DNA from: Escherichia coli
Lineage (GTDB): Bacteria > Pseudomonadota > Gammaproteobacteria > Enterobacterales > Enterobacteriaceae
Length of the DNA stretch: 4,727 bases
Direction: 5' to 3' (one strand)
NCBI RefSeq assembly: GCF_011045215.1
Contig: NZ_CP049203.1
Part shown: in pieces, positions 1 to 4,203 of the stretch
Position numbering within the stretch: position 1 is the first letter of the stretch
Layout: the number at the start of each line of letters is the position of its first letter
The notes under the pieces: generated by a model
Told to the model about the DNA's origin: nothing
The model's database searches: none
The model's input: only the letters and a program-made list of their open reading frames with translations
Made by a program: the position numbers and the translations under genes

Positions 1-2
1 TA

Positions 3-39
3 GATGTATTTCATCCATAAATATAAGATGAAATACATC
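3..39 (-). terminator. Stem-loop just downstream of the lysozyme-like gene (13-bp stem, 11-nt loop); candidate terminator or attenuator
   Basis: gatgtatttcatc (3-15) is the exact reverse complement of gatgaaatacatc (27-39). It lies about 20 nt past the stop codon on the minus strand. The 3' flank runs off the window, so a U-tract cannot be confirmed. Confidence 0.3.
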
Positions 40-58
40 ACATATCTACAATTATATA

Positions 59-808
59 TTAACGCTTATCTCGCAACTGCGCAGCTGTATCTTTATTTCT
101 CTGATCACCTCTTTGATGTAAATTTCGATGGCTCTCTTGTGCAGCCGTCTCCCAGTCACCACGATTAACTGCAGCATTGAAATTAGGAAAATCTTTAGAT
201 AACTTAGGGATACCTAAATTAAACCCCATGTCAACCAACGCTGTTTTCCTTGAATTAGAAAAACCATCATAACCAGAATACAAAGAACGCAATCCCTTCT
301 CTGTCACTTGAACATCACTAATACATAAACCGATAACAGCATTATTTGATAAATGTAAGTTCATAGGAACTTGTCTAGAATCTTTTTTAAAATTATTAAA
401 CGCCTCTGTAATTTCCTCTTTAGATGCGGAAACCTCTTTTTCCATATCATCACCATGAGCATGCCATGTATGTGTTCTTGAAAATGGAAGGGATGCAGCC
501 ATATCAGGCGTAGATAGTAAATGACCGATTCCAACAGTAATATTTCCCTCACTGTCTTTGTACATTGTGTTTTTAAAACCTTCATGAGATTTCAAATTAT
601 TAACACACATAGTCATATAAAAACCATCATAACTCCTAGTGGAGGAAATATTTATGTGTGTCTTATCAGAAATGCCCTCATGACTATTCCCTCCAGAGTG
701 TCCACCATAGCTACTATGATTATCACCATCATAACTATGAATCGTGCCATAAGGGGTATCATGATCGTGCCATCCCGGACCTTGATTAGAACTTTCAATA
801 CCGCTCAT
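59..808 (-). CDS. T4-type lysozyme (GH24 muramidase) domain protein with Gly/Ser/His-rich N-terminal extension, 249 aa; candidate SOS-inducible cell-wall-degrading bacteriocin
   Basis: Long ORF in AT-rich DNA. Start set at ATG 808-806 (Met31 of the 279-aa track ORF) because AGAGGA lies 8 nt upstream and the earlier Met codons are upstream of the LexA box; stop TAA at 61-59. Residues ~85-249 align by eye with T4 lysozyme: SHEGFKNTMYKDSEGNITVGIGHLL vs T4L [25 protein letters not shown], with Glu, Asp and Thr at T4L-equivalent spacing (E11/D20/T26); C-terminal RKTALVDMGFNLG and DWETAAQ match T4L RRAAINMVFQMG and WDEAAV. Confidence 0.85.
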   Translation of the reverse strand: MSGIESSNQGPGWHDHDTPYGTIHSYDGDNHSSYGGHSGGNSHEGISDKTHINISSTRSYDGFYMTMCVNNLKSHEGFKNTMYKDSEGNITVGIGHLLSTPDMAASLPFSRTHTWHAHGDDMEKEVSASKEEITEAFNNFKKDSRQVPMNLHLSNNAVIGLCISDVQVTEKGLRSLYSGYDGFSNSRKTALVDMGFNLGIPKLSKDFPNFNAAVNRGDWETAAQESHRNLHQRGDQRNKDTAAQLRDKR

Positions 809-844
809 ATTAATTTCCTCTTTGACTAACAAATAACAACACCA

Positions 845-898
845 CACAAAACTGTGTTTATATACAGTATACTTACGCCTCTCCATATTCCCTGTCAA
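845..898 (-). promoter_or_regulatory. Promoter region of the lysozyme-like gene: consensus -35 TTGACA (893-898); -10 ambiguous
   Basis: Minus strand reads TTGACA-gggaatatggagaggcg-TAAGTA-TACTGTATATAAACACAG. TAAGTA (870-875) gives a 17-bp spacer but is a poor -10; TATACT (866-871) is a better hexamer but gives a 21-bp spacer. The -10 cannot be fixed from sequence alone. Confidence 0.5.
850..869 (-). promoter_or_regulatory. LexA (SOS) box
   Basis: Minus strand TACTGTATATAAACACAGTT: CTGT-N8-ACAG with AT-rich spacer, 17 of 20 matches to consensus TACTGTATATATATACAGTA, placed between the -35 and the start codon as in colicin promoters. Only one box is seen; many colicins have two. Confidence 0.65.
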
Positions 899-1036
899 GA
901 ATATGGATTTTCATTTTTGTGATATAAATCAAAAAAAATCAATCGTGAGTAGTTCCAAGAGAAACATACGCGAACACTTCATCTAATCGAAAACGAGTGA
1001 AAGATATTTCCAAGAAAAATAAATAATAAGGGCTGC

Positions 1037-1072
1037 GTTTGGGAAACGTACAATAATTTCCGTTTCCCAAAC
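1037..1072 (-). terminator. Stem-loop (12-bp stem, 12-nt loop) between cer and the bacteriocin promoter; candidate terminator or insulator for leftward transcription
   Basis: gtttgggaaacg (1037-1048) pairs with cgtttcccaaac (1061-1072). On the minus strand it is followed by GCAGCCC then a T-rich run (TTATTATTTATTTTT). The T-run is not immediately adjacent, so this is only a candidate. Confidence 0.3.
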
Positions 1073-1115
1073 CGCCCCCAATAAGGCCGCCACACTACAG
1101 CTTTTGCATTAACAC

Positions 1116-1340
1116 ATTTACCATAATCCCTTAATTGTACGCACCGCTGAAACGCTCTCAGACGCTTTCTGACGCAAAAACCGTAAAAAGAGATGTTTTC
1201 CCCCGGGTAAACCGAAAAAATGCGTCAGGAACGTTTTCAGCGCGTTGCATGACTATGCATGAAACTGAATGGCGATCGGTTTGGGCGCGTCCGGTGTCTC
1301 AAAGGCTTATTTTCGGATGTTTTCGTCCTCCGGCGTCGTT
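1116..1340 (-). other. cer: cer-like Xer site-specific recombination (multimer resolution) site: XerC/XerD core 1116-1145 plus ~190 bp accessory region
   Basis: Minus strand 1145-1116 reads GGTGCGTACAA-TTAAGGGA-TTATGGTAAAT, identical to the ColE1 cer XerC arm, 8-bp central region and XerD arm as I recall them. The accessory sequences would extend rightward on the + strand; the far boundary is approximate. Confidence 0.75.
1245..1262. promoter_or_regulatory. Candidate ArgR box within the cer accessory region
   Basis: ttGCATgactATGCAtga resembles the ARG box TnTGAATwwwwATTCAnw (two half-sites, 4-bp spacer) and lies about 100 bp from the XerC arm, where cer carries its ArgR site. The match is imperfect. 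Confidence 0.3.
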
Positions 1341-1367
1341 TTTCCGGCTCCTCCTGGTGGCCAGAAG

Positions 1368-1582
1368 CAGCACCGTAACGGTGCCTGCCTCACAGTGCTG
1401 GATCCAGCACCGCAGCACCGTAAGCAGCACCGTAAAGGGAAAATCCAGCCACAATCCAGCACCATAACAGGCACCGTTACAGTGCCTGTTGTTGATTAAC
1501 ACCATGATTAATAAGGATTAGCACTGTAGCAGTGCCGGTTACAGTGCTTGATCCAGCCACAATCCGGCACCGTTGCGGTGCT
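1368..1582. repeat. Dense cluster of short palindromes and direct repeats built on GCACCG / CAGTGC, flanking an AT-rich core (1487-1520)
   Basis: CAGCACCGTAA x3 (1368-1378, 1413-1423, 1425-1435). Palindromes: gcaccgt-a-acggtgc (1370-1384), perfect 16-bp gtgctggatccagcac (1395-1410), ggcac-N7-gtgcc (1470-1486), gcactg-tag-cagtgc (1521-1535), gcaccg-ttg-cggtgc (1567-1581). Direct repeat atccagccacaatcc[a/g]gcacc at 1443-1463 and 1551-1571. Confidence 0.6.
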
Positions 1583-1832
1583 GCGTATGGCGGAAAAACG
1601 TAAATTTTGCCACCTGAAATAATTCTAATGCACTGATTCCAAAGAGAAATCATGCAAAACGCAGTTTTGCGACAGGTGTGGTGACAGCAGGTCAGAGAAG
1701 GGGCGGATTCAGATATGAATCCGGGCCAGATCCGGGCATTAAGGGGTTCCCGGAAACATGAATAAGATTGCCAGTGCACGGGGATTTTTAATCCCCTGCC
1801 CCGTTGAGCCGCTCCACGGCGAAAAGGGGAAA

Positions 1833-1852
1833 GTAAAGTTAGCTAACTTTAC
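1833..1852. repeat. Perfect 20-bp palindrome gtaaagttagctaactttac; candidate operator or minus-strand terminator hairpin
   Basis: Self-complementary over all 20 bp. On the minus strand it is followed directly by TTTCCCCTTTTC and lies about 130 nt downstream of the stop of ORF 1981-2226. Confidence 0.5.
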
Positions 1853-1980
1853 ATGTCCTGCCCGGCGTTCACCGGTGTTTATGGCGGGGAACTGAACCAC
1901 CGGACGGGTGGAAACATGTGTATTCCTGTGTGCCCCTGTGTAATCCGGTGGATTTGTGTGTGCAAAATTCCGTAGCCGGT

Positions 1981-2226
1981 TCACCTGCGCCTCGCCGGCT
2001 GCCAGGTAAACGTGTTCTCTGCGGCACGATATGCTTTTGTTCGTTGAGCCTTTGCGCTTCTCGCTCTGCGTTCTGCCCGAATCATTCTCAAAACTTTTGC
2101 ACGCACTTTTCGCTTAACTTCCCGTGGCAGCTCTTCTTTGTCGGATAACTGCAACTGCGCAGCCTGTAAGGCATACGCATCACTGATACGCTTACGTTCT
2201 GCCACTGTCAGTTTCACCCAATACAT
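1981..2226 (-). CDS. Hypothetical small basic protein (81 aa), possibly ribbon-helix-helix-like DNA-binding or relaxosome-accessory remnant
   Basis: ORF with a G-rich Shine-Dalgarno-like sequence (GGGGGATAGGT) before the ATG. The protein is strongly basic and helix-prone (KRKVRAKVLRMIRAERRARSAKAQR). Its N-terminus WVKLTVAERKRISDAYA resembles the strand-helix start of RHH proteins. No firm homology; GC-rich DNA produces chance ORFs. Confidence 0.35.
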   Translation of the reverse strand: MYWVKLTVAERKRISDAYALQAAQLQLSDKEELPREVKRKVRAKVLRMIRAERRARSAKAQRTKAYRAAENTFTWQPARRR

Positions 2227-2322
2227 ACCTATCCCCCTGGCAACTTCCCGGAGTTATGCCTTTCGCTGTTTCCTGTTCGTTGTCGTTCGTCTGAGGTGTC
2301 GAGGCTGTGCCCTGACCAGGCA

Positions 2323-2498
2323 TTTTGTAGCACTGCCGCATCGGTGGCGGTGCTACAAAACATATCCTGTCCCGTCGATGGGGCAGGATATCACGTCCGT
2401 TAGTTTTCATCGTCCGGGGTGCAGGGGTGGCACTCCTGCCAGGCGTTTTGCTGAACGGCCATCACCGATGGCGGTTCAACAAAACATATCCTGTCCCG
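2323..2498. repeat. Two ~30-bp imperfect direct repeats (2345-2374 and 2469-2498) with associated inverted repeats
   Basis: tggcggt-NNN-acaaaacatatcctgtcccg occurs twice about 124 bp apart. An 11-bp inverted repeat ttttgtagcac / gtgctacaaaa (2323-2333 / 2350-2360) overlaps the first copy, and atatcctgtccc / ggggcaggatat (2362-2373 / 2380-2391) is a 12-bp inverted repeat with one mismatch. Confidence 0.55.
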
Positions 2499-2632
2499 CC
2501 TTTGCGTTCGCCGTTCGCGCATTGATGGCCAGCTTTGGCCAGTACACTGGCCATCACGCCGGGTCACTTTGTCAGATGTTAAAAAATCACGCGGTAAACG
2601 CCGTTATGCGCGGGTTTGCGCATGAAGCTCCC

Positions 2633-2667
2633 GTGCGTCACTTTGTCAAAAAGTCAAAGTGACGCAC
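2633..2667. repeat. Perfect 13-bp inverted repeat with 9-bp spacer (gtgcgtcactttg ... caaagtgacgcac)
   Basis: 2633-2645 is the exact reverse complement of 2655-2667. No flanking T-tract on either strand, so a protein-binding site is more likely than a terminator. Confidence 0.55.
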
Positions 2668-2816
2668 ATCAGGAACCGCCGGAACGTTCGTGTTGATGAC
2701 GGCAACATGCGCACAACGCAGACAGAAAATCGCGCACATATTCAGCAAAAAATAAGCGTCACGGGGTGTTAATTTCGTGCAGCCCACGCGTGGCAGGGCT
2801 TGTGTGATAATTTTCA

Positions 2817-2852
2817 GTGACGTCACCTGGTGTGATGACCAGGTGACGCACA
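2817..2852. repeat. Inverted repeat cgtcacctggt / accaggtgacg (11-bp arms, 6-bp spacer) carrying GTGACG(T/C)CAC motifs, about 40 bp upstream of rop
   Basis: 2821-2831 pairs with 2838-2848. The 10-bp palindrome gtgacgtcac sits at 2817-2826 and GTGACGCAC at 2844-2852; the same 9-mer occurs at 2659-2667 and inverted at 2633-2641. Confidence 0.55.
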
Positions 2853-2891
2853 GGCGGACGTAATAAACACCAGTAACGGAGACGGGAGAAC

Positions 2892-3086
2892 GTGAACAAA
2901 CAGCAACAGACCGCGCTCAACATGGCGCGATTCATCAAAAGCCAGAGCCTGACATTACTCGGGAAACTTGACGCTCTGGACGCCGACGAACAGGCCACCC
3001 TGTGCGAACGGCTACACGAACTGGCGGAAGAACTCTGTGACAGCGTACAGACGCACTTTGAGGCGCAGTACAGCACGGAACCATAA
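2892..3086 (+). CDS. rop: Rop/Rom, RNA I-RNA II pairing modulator of ColE1-type replicons (64 aa, GTG start)
   Basis: MNKQQQTALNMARFIKSQSLTLLGKLDALDADEQATLCERLHELAEELC aligns along its length with pMB1/pBR322 Rop (MTKQEKTALNMARFIRSQTLTLLEKLNELDADEQADICESLHDHADELY, from memory). It is oriented toward the origin as in pBR322. Stop TAA at 3084-3086; GGAGA/GGGAGA precedes the GTG. Confidence 0.9.
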   Translation: MNKQQQTALNMARFIKSQSLTLLGKLDALDADEQATLCERLHELAEELCDSVQTHFEAQYSTEP

Positions 3087-3796
3087 CAGGGGCTGGCGAA
3101 AGCGGTCGCGGCTCGTCCGTGAGCGTTTTCGCCAGCAGACAAGCCCGGAGAGCGCGTCAGGACATGGGCTGAGAGAAACACCGGCGCGTAAGTGCTCAAA
3201 TCAGACTGGCGGAGACATTCCGCTTCCTCGCCCACTCGCTCACTACGTTCGGTCGCTGGGGCTGCGGCGAGCGGTGACGGCTCTCTCATAACGGCGGACA
3301 GTTTATCCACAGAATCGGGGGATAAGCCGGACAGAACATGTGAGCAAAAAGCACGAACAAAAAGGCCGCGGCGGGGCCGTTTTTCCATAGGCTCCGCCTC
3401 CCCCTGGCGAGCTTCACACTTTTCGAAGCTGCAAGCCTAGGATTTGACGAAACCCGATGTGGCTTCAAGATCATCACCGTTTCCGGTGAATCGCTCCCCC
3501 CTGCGACCTCCACATTCCCGCCATATCGTTTGCCGGATACCTTACCGCCTTTCCCCTTGCGGGACCGTGGCGCTTTCTCATAGCTCACGTGCATCTCTGC
3601 GGTATCTCGGGCGACTTAGGCAGTTCGCTCCAGGTCTGGCTGTATGCAGGACCCCCCCTTTCAGCCTGACTGCTGCGCCTGTTCCGGTAACTGTTCTCTT
3701 GAGGCCAACCCGGAAAGACACGCCTTAACGCCACTGGCAGCAGCCACTGGTAACTGGATTTGCAGAGCGAGATGTATACAGATGGTTACAGAGTTC

Positions 3797-3825
3797 TTGA
3801 GTAACAGCCCTCTTATGGCTACACT
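3797..3825 (+). promoter_or_regulatory. RNA I promoter (-35 TTGAGT, 17-bp spacer, -10 TACACT)
   Basis: Positionally equivalent to the pBR322 RNA I promoter (TTGAAG-N17-TACACT), with the transcript start about 7 nt downstream. Confidence 0.6.
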
Positions 3826-3831
3826 AGAGGG

Positions 3832-3940
3832 ACAGTTTTTAGGTAATCTGCGCTCTGCGATAGCCAGTTACCATTGGAACAATGAGAAGGTGAGATGTCT
3901 CATCGCTCCCGGAAAAAACCGCCTTACGGCGGTTTTTTCC
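3832..3940 (+). ncRNA. RNA I (antisense replication inhibitor)
   Basis: Begins ACAGTTTTTAGGTAATCTGCGCTCTGC (pMB1 RNA I begins ACAGTATTTGGTATCTGCGCTCTGC) and ends in the hairpin plus U-tract aaaaaaccgcc-ttac-ggcggtttttt (3913-3936). About 108 nt, antisense to the 5' end of RNA II. Confidence 0.8.
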
Positions 3941-3953
3941 GTTTACAAGCCGA

Positions 3954-3982
3954 AGATTACGCGCAGCGGCAAAGGATCTCAA
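3954..3982 (-). promoter_or_regulatory. RNA II promoter (-35 TTGAGA, 17-bp spacer, -10 TAATCT)
   Basis: Minus strand reads TTGAGA-tcctttgccgctgcgcg-TAATCT-tcggctt-G. The hexamers are identical to the pBR322 RNA II promoter. Confidence 0.7.
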
Positions 3983-4203
3983 GAGGATCTTTTGCGATCC
4001 GCCTGAAACTCATCACCGTAATTCCGTCTGTGGAATAAACGCAACCTTTTGCACATTATCGGTTAAATCATAACGAATTTGCATATACAACTGCGGTTCA
4101 AAGCCAGTAAACTGGGGGGCGAAGCCCAACCGTTACCAGCTTTGGTGACGTAATTTCCTGAAGTTCCAGCGTAGAACACCAGTTACCAAAAAACGAACAC
4201 AAC

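Follow-up and report, generated by a model that had tools for sequence, protein, structure and literature searches.

What is a perfect 20-bp palindrome doing on a small plasmid of Escherichia coli? Positions 1833-1852 of the window (the whole stretch of DNA that was analysed, 4,727 nucleotides) read GTAAAGTTAGCTAACTTTAC, which is identical to its own reverse complement, as an earlier sequence-only reading had reported. No longer spacer-free palindrome occurs in the window, the runner-up being 16 bp long at 1395-1410. A perfect palindrome with arms of at least 10 nt appeared in 14 of 3000 dinucleotide-preserving shuffles (0.47%), in agreement with the same reading, which had held the palindrome to be improbable by chance. 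The repeat finder did not list it, because its 10-nt arms are below the reporting limit of 12 nt. A chance origin is unlikely, and the palindrome is independently explained by homology to a known element, the transfer origin (oriT) of IncP plasmids.

We agree with the earlier reading that the site is not a LexA box. A TyrR box (TGTAAA-N6-TTTACA) was dropped as well, since GTAAA and TTTAC are 10 nt apart in the palindrome and not 6. Directly 3' of the palindrome lies a relaxase nick region, ATGTCCTG/CCCGG (the slash marks the nick here and below), which the sequence-only reading had overlooked. The parts of the IncP-type oriT in the window, assigned by homology, are as follows.

1799-1829, plus strand: traJ-side conserved block (CCCCGTTGAGCCGCTCCACGGCGAAAAGGGG), counterpart of the second hairpin in the Rfam traJ-II model
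1833-1852, no strand assigned: collapsed oriT inverted repeat (perfect 20-bp palindrome), the 40-nt repeat of pJJ1886_4 minus 20 nt
1838-1852, plus strand: nick-proximal arm (GTTAGCTAACTTTAC), predicted site for TraJ of the pJJ1886_4 clade supplied in trans
1853-1865, plus strand: relaxase nick region ATGTCCTG/CCCGG, predicted nick between G1860 and C1861
1866-1885, plus strand: short conserved block on the traK side (CGTTCACCGGTGTTTATGGC), end of the IncP homology

Homology with IncP transfer origins

The RP4 oriT sequence matched database plasmid records at 100% identity, among them the IncP plasmid pBS228, in which it is flanked by traJ and traK. With window 1770-1900 as the query, a sensitive search returned 79 plasmids typed as conjugative. 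The best group consisted of MOBP/MPF_T plasmids of 40-74 kb with 95.5% identity over window 1838-1881 (44-nt match, E = 2e-10). In pJJ1886_4 and p588889_3, the match is intergenic between traK and the divergent traJ, which adjoins a TraI/MobA(P) relaxase gene. In a six-way alignment, homology extended from CCCGTTGAGC...GCGAA(T/A)AAGGG across the repeat and ATGTCCTGCCCGG as far as GGTGTTTA(T/C)G; beyond this point the window diverges from the IncP plasmids, and window 1799-1885 could be aligned column by column with the oriTs of pBS228, pJJ1886_4 and p588889_3. By homology, we assign the palindrome with high confidence as the collapsed inverted repeat of an IncP-type oriT. Judged by sequence, the closest kin of the window oriT is the pJJ1886_4/pMCR_1511 clade of enterobacterial IncP plasmids. 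This is a new IncP/MOBP11 clade, and its tested members were transferred by conjugation (PMC5660977, PMC4270462).

The Rfam family RF01760 ('traJ-II') matched the minus strand at 1791-1855 with 29.5 bits (E = 0.002-0.015), below the gathering threshold of 40. In the alignment with this model, the palindrome corresponds to the first hairpin minus about 20 loop positions, and CCCC...GGGG (1799-1829) corresponds to the second hairpin. The traJ-II model gave 112.6, 99 and 97.4 bits for three genuine IncP oriTs and 41.7 bits for a small relative from E. albertii that has the full-length hairpin, which confirmed what the model detects and accounted for the low score of the window. In RK2/RP4 the traJ-II motif is the oriT, that is, the major inverted repeat and the nick site; the IncP repeat is recognised by the small DNA-binding protein TraJ of the relaxosome, and the nick-proximal (right) arm of the repeat confers the specificity of the RP4 relaxosome (PMC6206304).

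Although RF01760 is curated as a cis-regulatory RNA, the oriTs between traJ and traK in three IncP plasmids gave scores of 97-113 bits with it. The family more probably describes a transfer origin, a DNA element, than an RNA, and traJ-II as oriT DNA has been noted already (PMC6206304).

A structured RNA is the alternative suggested by the Rfam entry. The traJ-II hairpins would then act in a transcript, for example a 3'-UTR or an antisense RNA bound by the ProQ/FinO-family protein of the relatives, comparable to FinP/traJ/FinO of F plasmids. The minus-strand match would fit such an RNA, as would the ProQ/FinO-family gene that adjoins the element, just upstream on the minus strand, in CP057986, CP117577 and CP057044; ProQ/FinO proteins bind 3'-terminal hairpins. 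However, traJ-II coincides with the IncP oriT, and the relevant traJ is the RP4-type relaxosome gene and not the traJ of F. The window has an unrelated 81-aa ORF in place of the ProQ/FinO gene, and the plasmids of rep_cluster_2324 described below retain the repeat and nick region without that gene. The scan found no promoter-like or terminator-like site there, and the boundary of conservation is that of the repeat plus nick region rather than a transcript end. In an Rfam search of 1600-2300 with E up to 10, only traJ-II and one chance microRNA model were matched, the family of the F-type traJ 5'-UTR/FinP was not, and no traJ gene of the F type was found beside the element in the window. We consider a structured RNA very unlikely. 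The FinP/FinO-style version, suggested by the name traJ-II and the gene of the relatives, was rejected on the scores of traJ-II on IncP oriTs and the lack of a ProQ/FinO gene in the window.

Anatomy of the shortened repeat

The traJ-side block (1799-1829) aligned with CCCGTTGAGC...GCGAATAAGGG of pBS228 (RP4 type), pJJ1886_4 and p588889_3 as well as with the traJ-II model, and it formed a hairpin in the single-stranded DNA fold. The 40-nt repeat of pJJ1886_4 is GTAAAGTT(TGATAACCTGTTTACAGGTT)AGCTAACTTTAC, of which the window repeat lacks the central 20 nt, and its layout is GTAAAGTTTGATAACCTG-TTTA-CAGGTTAGCTAACTTTAC followed by ATGTCCTGCCCGG. Removal of 20 nt turns this repeat exactly into the window palindrome; owing to a GTT direct repeat, the precise end points of the deletion are ambiguous. 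The perfect symmetry of the product is due to a small internal dyad (GTTAGCTAAC) in the nick-proximal arm. As single-stranded DNA, 1833-1852 has an 8-bp stem and a 4-nt loop, and the fold of 1775-1885 contains three hairpins with the palindrome among them (z = -3.3). The arms are 10 nt long, compared with arms of about 17-19 bp in a hairpin of 37-40 nt typical of the conjugative members.

The 15 nt of the nick-proximal arm recur unchanged as the right arm in pJJ1886_4 and in metagenomic loci encoding TraJ at 81-100% identity, and TraJ would be expected to bind at 1838-1852. The nick region is identical in the oriTs of pJJ1886_4 and p588889_3, and RP4 has CTATCCTG/CCCGG in the same aligned columns. 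We take the cut to be at 1860/1861 from the alignment with the RP4 nick (ATCCTG/CCC). The distance from the repeat end at 1852 to this predicted nick is 8 nt, the same register as in RP4-type oriTs and in pJJ1886_4. The IncP relaxase nick consensus is YATCCTG/Y, and the window agrees with the RP4 heptamer at 6 of 7 positions. On the traK side, 1866-1885 aligned with CTTTCGCCGGTGTTTACGCC of pJJ1886_4; only these ~20 nt are kept there, whereas the block on the traJ side is retained. The next block on the traK side of IncP plasmids (CAAGGAAAGTCTACAC or GCCAAGGAAAGTCTACAC) was absent from the window in the six-way alignment.

The sequence-only reading had proposed that the palindrome may be an operator of a dimeric regulator or, on the minus strand, a terminator for the small ORF 1981-2226. 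The dyad of the first proposal is real and probably bound by a protein, the IncP homologue being a TraJ site, but a role as an operator for the plasmid's own genes did not hold up. Such an operator would have a dimeric host or plasmid transcription factor on the dyad regulating the neighbouring genes. Its symmetry is perfect, and in IncP plasmids the relaxosome proteins at oriT have a second role as repressors of the divergent tra promoters. However, no promoter-like site was found by the scan of 1550-2550, no candidate regulator gene was found in the window by family searches, the sequence of the element is constant while the neighbouring genes vary between plasmids, and an operator would not explain why the element is so closely linked to a relaxase nick sequence. 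An operator is therefore highly improbable.

For the terminator, the minus-strand tail cited by that reading (TTTCCCCTTTTC) is indeed present, and a minus-strand hairpin followed by UUUCCCCUUUUC lies about 130 nt past the stop codon of ORF 1981-2226. The site nevertheless failed the terminator scan, the stem having 2 G-C pairs and the tail UUUCCCCUUUU an interrupted U run. Its RNA hairpin is weak (-6.4 kcal/mol, compared with -24 kcal/mol for the terminator of RNAI on this plasmid), and the homologous repeats are flanked by divergent genes or precede a minus-strand gene and are not at the 3' end of a gene. An intrinsic terminator at this site is hardly credible.

The plasmid and its neighbouring features

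The window, with its Rop gene (2892-3086) and its RNAI match (3835-3942), is a small plasmid of the ColE1 type. Of eight ORFs compared with NCBIfam, among them all of at least 159 aa, none matched a relaxase family, and tblastn found no TraI, TraJ or TraK in the window. The relatives of the window are typed as non-mobilizable, and the closest among the matches listed cover only 1116-4000. The best matches listed from plasmid or E. coli collections did not cover window 1-1115, and none of the best database matches listed covered 4000-4727.

Two further oriT-like units of another type were found downstream, 460-630 bp from the palindrome.

2323-2374, plus strand: unit A, IncI-complex (MPF_I/MOBP) oriT-like, arms 2323-2337 and 2346-2360, then CATATCCTG/TCCCG, predicted nick 2369/2370
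2445-2498, plus strand: unit B, IncI-complex oriT-like, arms 2445-2460 and 2470-2485, then ATATCCTG/TCCCG, predicted nick 2493/2494

Unit A was detected through repeat pair I9 and direct-repeat family D2, and it aligned with the intergenic region that immediately precedes the mobA/nikA-like and relaxase genes of p205880-qnrS and pRHB39-C22_3. The two units have different inverted repeats of 15-16 bp followed by the same ATATCCTG/TCCCG. The repeat of unit B is closest to that of pRHB39-C22_3 (IncI-gamma/K1), and strain RHB39-C22 holds both this plasmid and pRHB39-C22_5, a close relative of the window. The three predicted nicks (IncP-type, A and B) are all on the plus strand in the same orientation, and three oriT-like units of two unrelated helper types lie within 700 bp.

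Several other features of the plasmid were observed. The minus strand at 1106-1135, reverse complement GGTGCGTACAATTAAGGGATTATGGTAAAT, is identical to the XerC/XerD core of ColE1 cer and would be a multimer-resolution site. Homology to the relatives begins at about 1116, right at this cer-like site, which fits an exchange of modules at Xer sites. Between it and the oriT, 1357-1591 contains closely packed, mutually related dyads with the pattern GCACCGT-N-ACGGTGC (e.g., 1370-1384, 1471-1485, 1521-1535 and 1567-1581) along with GCAGCACCGTAA direct repeats and the 16-bp perfect palindrome mentioned above.

The 249-aa protein encoded at 59-808 on the minus strand has a T4-lysozyme-like domain, with matches to T4 lysozyme (1e-6) and a pesticin-lysozyme chimera in the PDB and to a PHROG endolysin (3e-12). 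A LexA-box-like site, CTGTGTTTATATACAG, lies at 852-867 ahead of the gene. From sequence the product looks like an SOS-induced, pesticin-like lysozyme bacteriocin. The 159-aa ORF at 4204-4683 on the minus strand has a hydrophobic N-terminus and no NCBIfam or PHROG match, and its product is a candidate immunity protein for the bacteriocin.

Positions 1981-2240 appear as a cargo slot between the IncP-type and IncI-type units, with conserved flanks and a variable gene, when the window is compared with L001 (1189-1563), L002 (1452-1802) and L018 (2999-3373). The slot encodes a ProQ/FinO-family protein in close relatives; in others it encodes an ANR-family regulator, and the window has an unrelated basic ORF of 81 aa (1981-2226, minus strand) there. 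This ORF had no Pfam, NCBIfam or PHROG match. Its homologues (tblastn, ~50% identity) are found mostly on ColE1-type plasmids of Klebsiella typed as mobilizable, about 400 Klebsiella plasmids in all, and are annotated only as hypothetical. Without a family match and with such homologues, the ORF was rejected as a relaxosome accessory protein.

Conservation of the collapsed repeat in small plasmids

The sequence-only reading had named conservation across related plasmids as a check. The 33-mer 1833-1865, comprising the palindrome and nick region, is identical (33/33) in a second ColE1-type lineage, rep_cluster_2324, while the 60-nt flanks in that lineage are only 53-67% identical to the window. 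The carriers are about 21 further small plasmids of 2.6-7 kb with RNAI-type origins from E. coli, Klebsiella and Enterobacter, and none of them has an annotated relaxase. One plasmid sharing the 33-mer carries tet(A). By contrast with this short form, the listed conjugative-typed plasmids of 40-94 kb all match from window 1838 onward, which is the pattern of the long repeat.

Further records of the 33-mer are NZ_CP007394.1 (5040156-5040188), NZ_CP034557.1 and NZ_CP138699.1 (70145-70177). They comprise an E. coli ST2747 chromosome, where the 33-mer probably marks an integrated small plasmid, a 174-kb Klebsiella plasmid and a 3849-bp entry labelled Burkholderia cepacia ATCC 25416. The Klebsiella plasmid has the short form; the same strain holds a 7-kb short-form plasmid, and the large one is probably a cointegrate or contains an integrated small plasmid. 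The Burkholderia entry equals E. coli plasmids in size and may be a contamination.

A metagenome scan with the 16-mer TTTACATGTCCTGCCC gave 123 matches. The repeat, the conserved flank or both were present in 60 of them, and the 63 with neither were treated as chance or unrelated. The plasmid database and the metagenome scan together gave 26 copies of collapsed repeats (19-27 nt), every one on a locus without a TraJ, TraI or TraK homologue, and the majority of these loci have a ColE1-type replication origin. Most repeats of 37-40 nt adjoin a TraJ homologue, the exception being a 38-nt group (~13 copies), whose loci also lack tra genes and mostly have ColE1-type origins.

Other collapsed versions stand beside the same nick region on metagenomic small-plasmid contigs (L040 and L041; L107; L096, L120 and L121; L077). 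The version in L040 and L041, GTAAAGTGGGCCCACTTTAC, is a second perfect 20-bp palindrome, GTGAAGTGGTACCACTTTAC has one mismatched pair, and GTAAAGTGCAGCACTTTAC is 9+1+9. The last form, which is not accompanied by the conserved flank GCGAA, may have matched by chance. With that proviso, the dyad symmetry is perfect or nearly so in two to four further collapsed forms. A partially deleted 27-nt repeat is also present among the loci, and in L063, L080 and L119 the repeat is wholly lost and the nick region kept. Stem position 7 is T:A in some of the long forms and C:G in others, both arms having changed; this paired change indicates that the dyad is maintained and not accidental.

Working origin or relic

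We think it probable that the palindrome is the repeat of an orphan oriT of the IncP/MOBP11 (RP4) type on a relaxase-less ColE1-type plasmid, which would be mobilised in trans by TraJ and TraI of the IncP clade. The serious rival, which we judge unlikely, is a dead relic. The element would then descend from an IncP-type oriT inactivated by the 20-nt deletion in the repeat and by the missing traK-side region, and the palindrome would be a by-product of hairpin-tip deletion via replication slippage in a multicopy plasmid. The 3-nt direct repeat flanking the deletion is what slippage across a hairpin predicts, and the graded series of repeats (27-nt partial, 20-nt, fully deleted) and the Rfam score under threshold also speak for a relic. 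Against a relic, the 33-mer is 100% conserved in two lineages with such divergent flanks, and two to four independently collapsed forms have stayed (near-)perfectly symmetric with the nick region intact. The arm that is retained is also the nick-proximal one, which carries TraJ specificity in RP4.

Some observations weigh against a working orphan oriT. The fully repeat-less loci fit ongoing decay as well as selection. The RP4 machinery failed on Pasteurellaceae plasmids with a comparable traJ-II-type orphan oriT (PMC6206304). In 5426 complete genomes of E. coli, the nick region was present in 67, and a short-form small plasmid together with a pJJ1886_4-type plasmid in 0; this count, with about 0.2 expected and little power, shows no enrichment of co-residence with the cognate helper and was counted for the relic as well. 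In the farm sample RHB15, an IncP-clade plasmid and short-form plasmids were present in different isolates. Efficient assembly of a relaxosome is uncertain, because the repeat has half the canonical length, the traK-side block is missing and the Rfam score is below the gathering threshold.

A more specific version of the working orphan oriT can be put forward only tentatively, and we hold it to be rather doubtful. The 20-bp perfect palindromes may be a recurrently evolved 'mini-oriT' and not decay, in which the IncP hairpin was trimmed on relaxase-less multicopy plasmids to its outer 7-8 bp plus a symmetric TraJ site (GTTAGCTAAC, GTGGGCCCAC or GTGGTACCAC). Full relaxosome recognition and the hairpin in the single strand would be kept, and the unstable long palindrome would be shed. 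If so, the IncP relaxosome would need just half of the canonical repeat, and TraJ would read a small dyad within the nick-proximal arm. Counting the IncI units too, the plasmid, classed as non-mobilizable by standard typing tools, would hitchhike on several kinds of helper.

Proposed mobilisation and its significance

In the orphan oriT model, TraJ of a co-resident cognate IncP plasmid would bind the nick-proximal arm at 1838-1852, as suggested by RP4 biochemistry, and would load the TraI relaxase onto ATGTCCTG/CCCGG. TraI would nick the plus strand between 1860 and 1861 and stay bound to the 5' end, and the plus strand would move 5' to 3' from 1861 via the MPF_T secretion system of the helper. 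The repeat and nick region would arrive last, where the 20-nt hairpin and the nick sequence in the single strand would permit the closing cut-and-join. Units A and B of the IncI complex would open MPF_I helpers to the plasmid as well.

The window has three oriT-like units for two conjugation systems on a plasmid of a 'non-mobilizable' type, and one of these systems is the IncP clade that is spreading mcr-1. If the units work, such plasmids and their cargo, here a putative lysozyme-type bacteriocin, could spread among Enterobacteriaceae given a matching helper, and predictions of mobility based on relaxase genes would understate it. As natural deletions of graded extent, the shortened repeats could be used to ask what portion of the IncP inverted repeat is required by the TraJ/TraI relaxosome. 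The principle that orphan oriTs hijack helpers is already established (PMC10123127, PMC8136818). A full-text literature search with the palindrome or nick-region strings gave no relevant match, and we did not find this shortened oriT of the IncP clade described in the searchable literature.

Comparison with known systems

The oriT of IncP-1 plasmids (RP4/RK2; RF01760) and that of the pJJ1886_4/pMCR_1511/pMCR16_P053 clade are the nearest models. The base of the repeat is GTAAAG...CTTTAC in the window and GTGAAG...CTTCAC in RP4. With the pJJ1886_4 clade the window shares ATGTCCTG/CCCGG, where RP4 has CTATCCTG/CCCGG, the 15-nt nick-proximal arm and the traJ-side CCCGTTGAGC...GCGAA(T/A)AAGGG. Unlike these oriTs, its repeat is 20 nt long and perfect, compared with 37-40 nt and imperfect, and it is without the traK-side block and adjoining traJ, traI or traK, on a multicopy replicon of the ColE1 type.

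Units A and B resemble the oriT of R64 and the IncI complex (NikA-NikB relaxosome) in their repeat of 15-16 bp followed by ATATCCTG/TCCCG and in their match upstream of mobA/nikA-like and relaxase genes in MPF_I plasmids. They differ in being two tandem units with differing repeats, without nikA or nikB, and they are distinct from the palindrome.

Orphan oriTs of the traJ-II type are known on the small tet(B) plasmids pB1001, p780 and pYE-tet of Pasteurellaceae and Yersinia (PMC6206304, PMC8155512). These are likewise small plasmids without mob genes that have an RP4-like nick site beside a major inverted repeat, and pYE-tet has a VbhA antitoxin gene nearby, as do the rep_cluster_2324 plasmids with the 33-mer of the window. 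In contrast to the window, they have iteron/Rep replicons and not ColE1, their repeat differs in sequence and length, and they were not mobilised by RP4.

Relaxase-less plasmids with an oriT ('pOriT', Ares-Arroyo et al.) are an established class, and ColE1-type plasmids with an R64-related oriT (oriT_pCERC7) have been described already (PMC10123127). Mimics of oriT are also known on staphylococcal plasmids (PMC8136818). The window is like both in being a small plasmid without conjugation proteins that has a copy of the oriT of a conjugative plasmid, with repeat subtypes that parallel the conjugative ones. It differs from them in that its IncP-type unit is shortened and not a full copy, and in having three units for two helper types.
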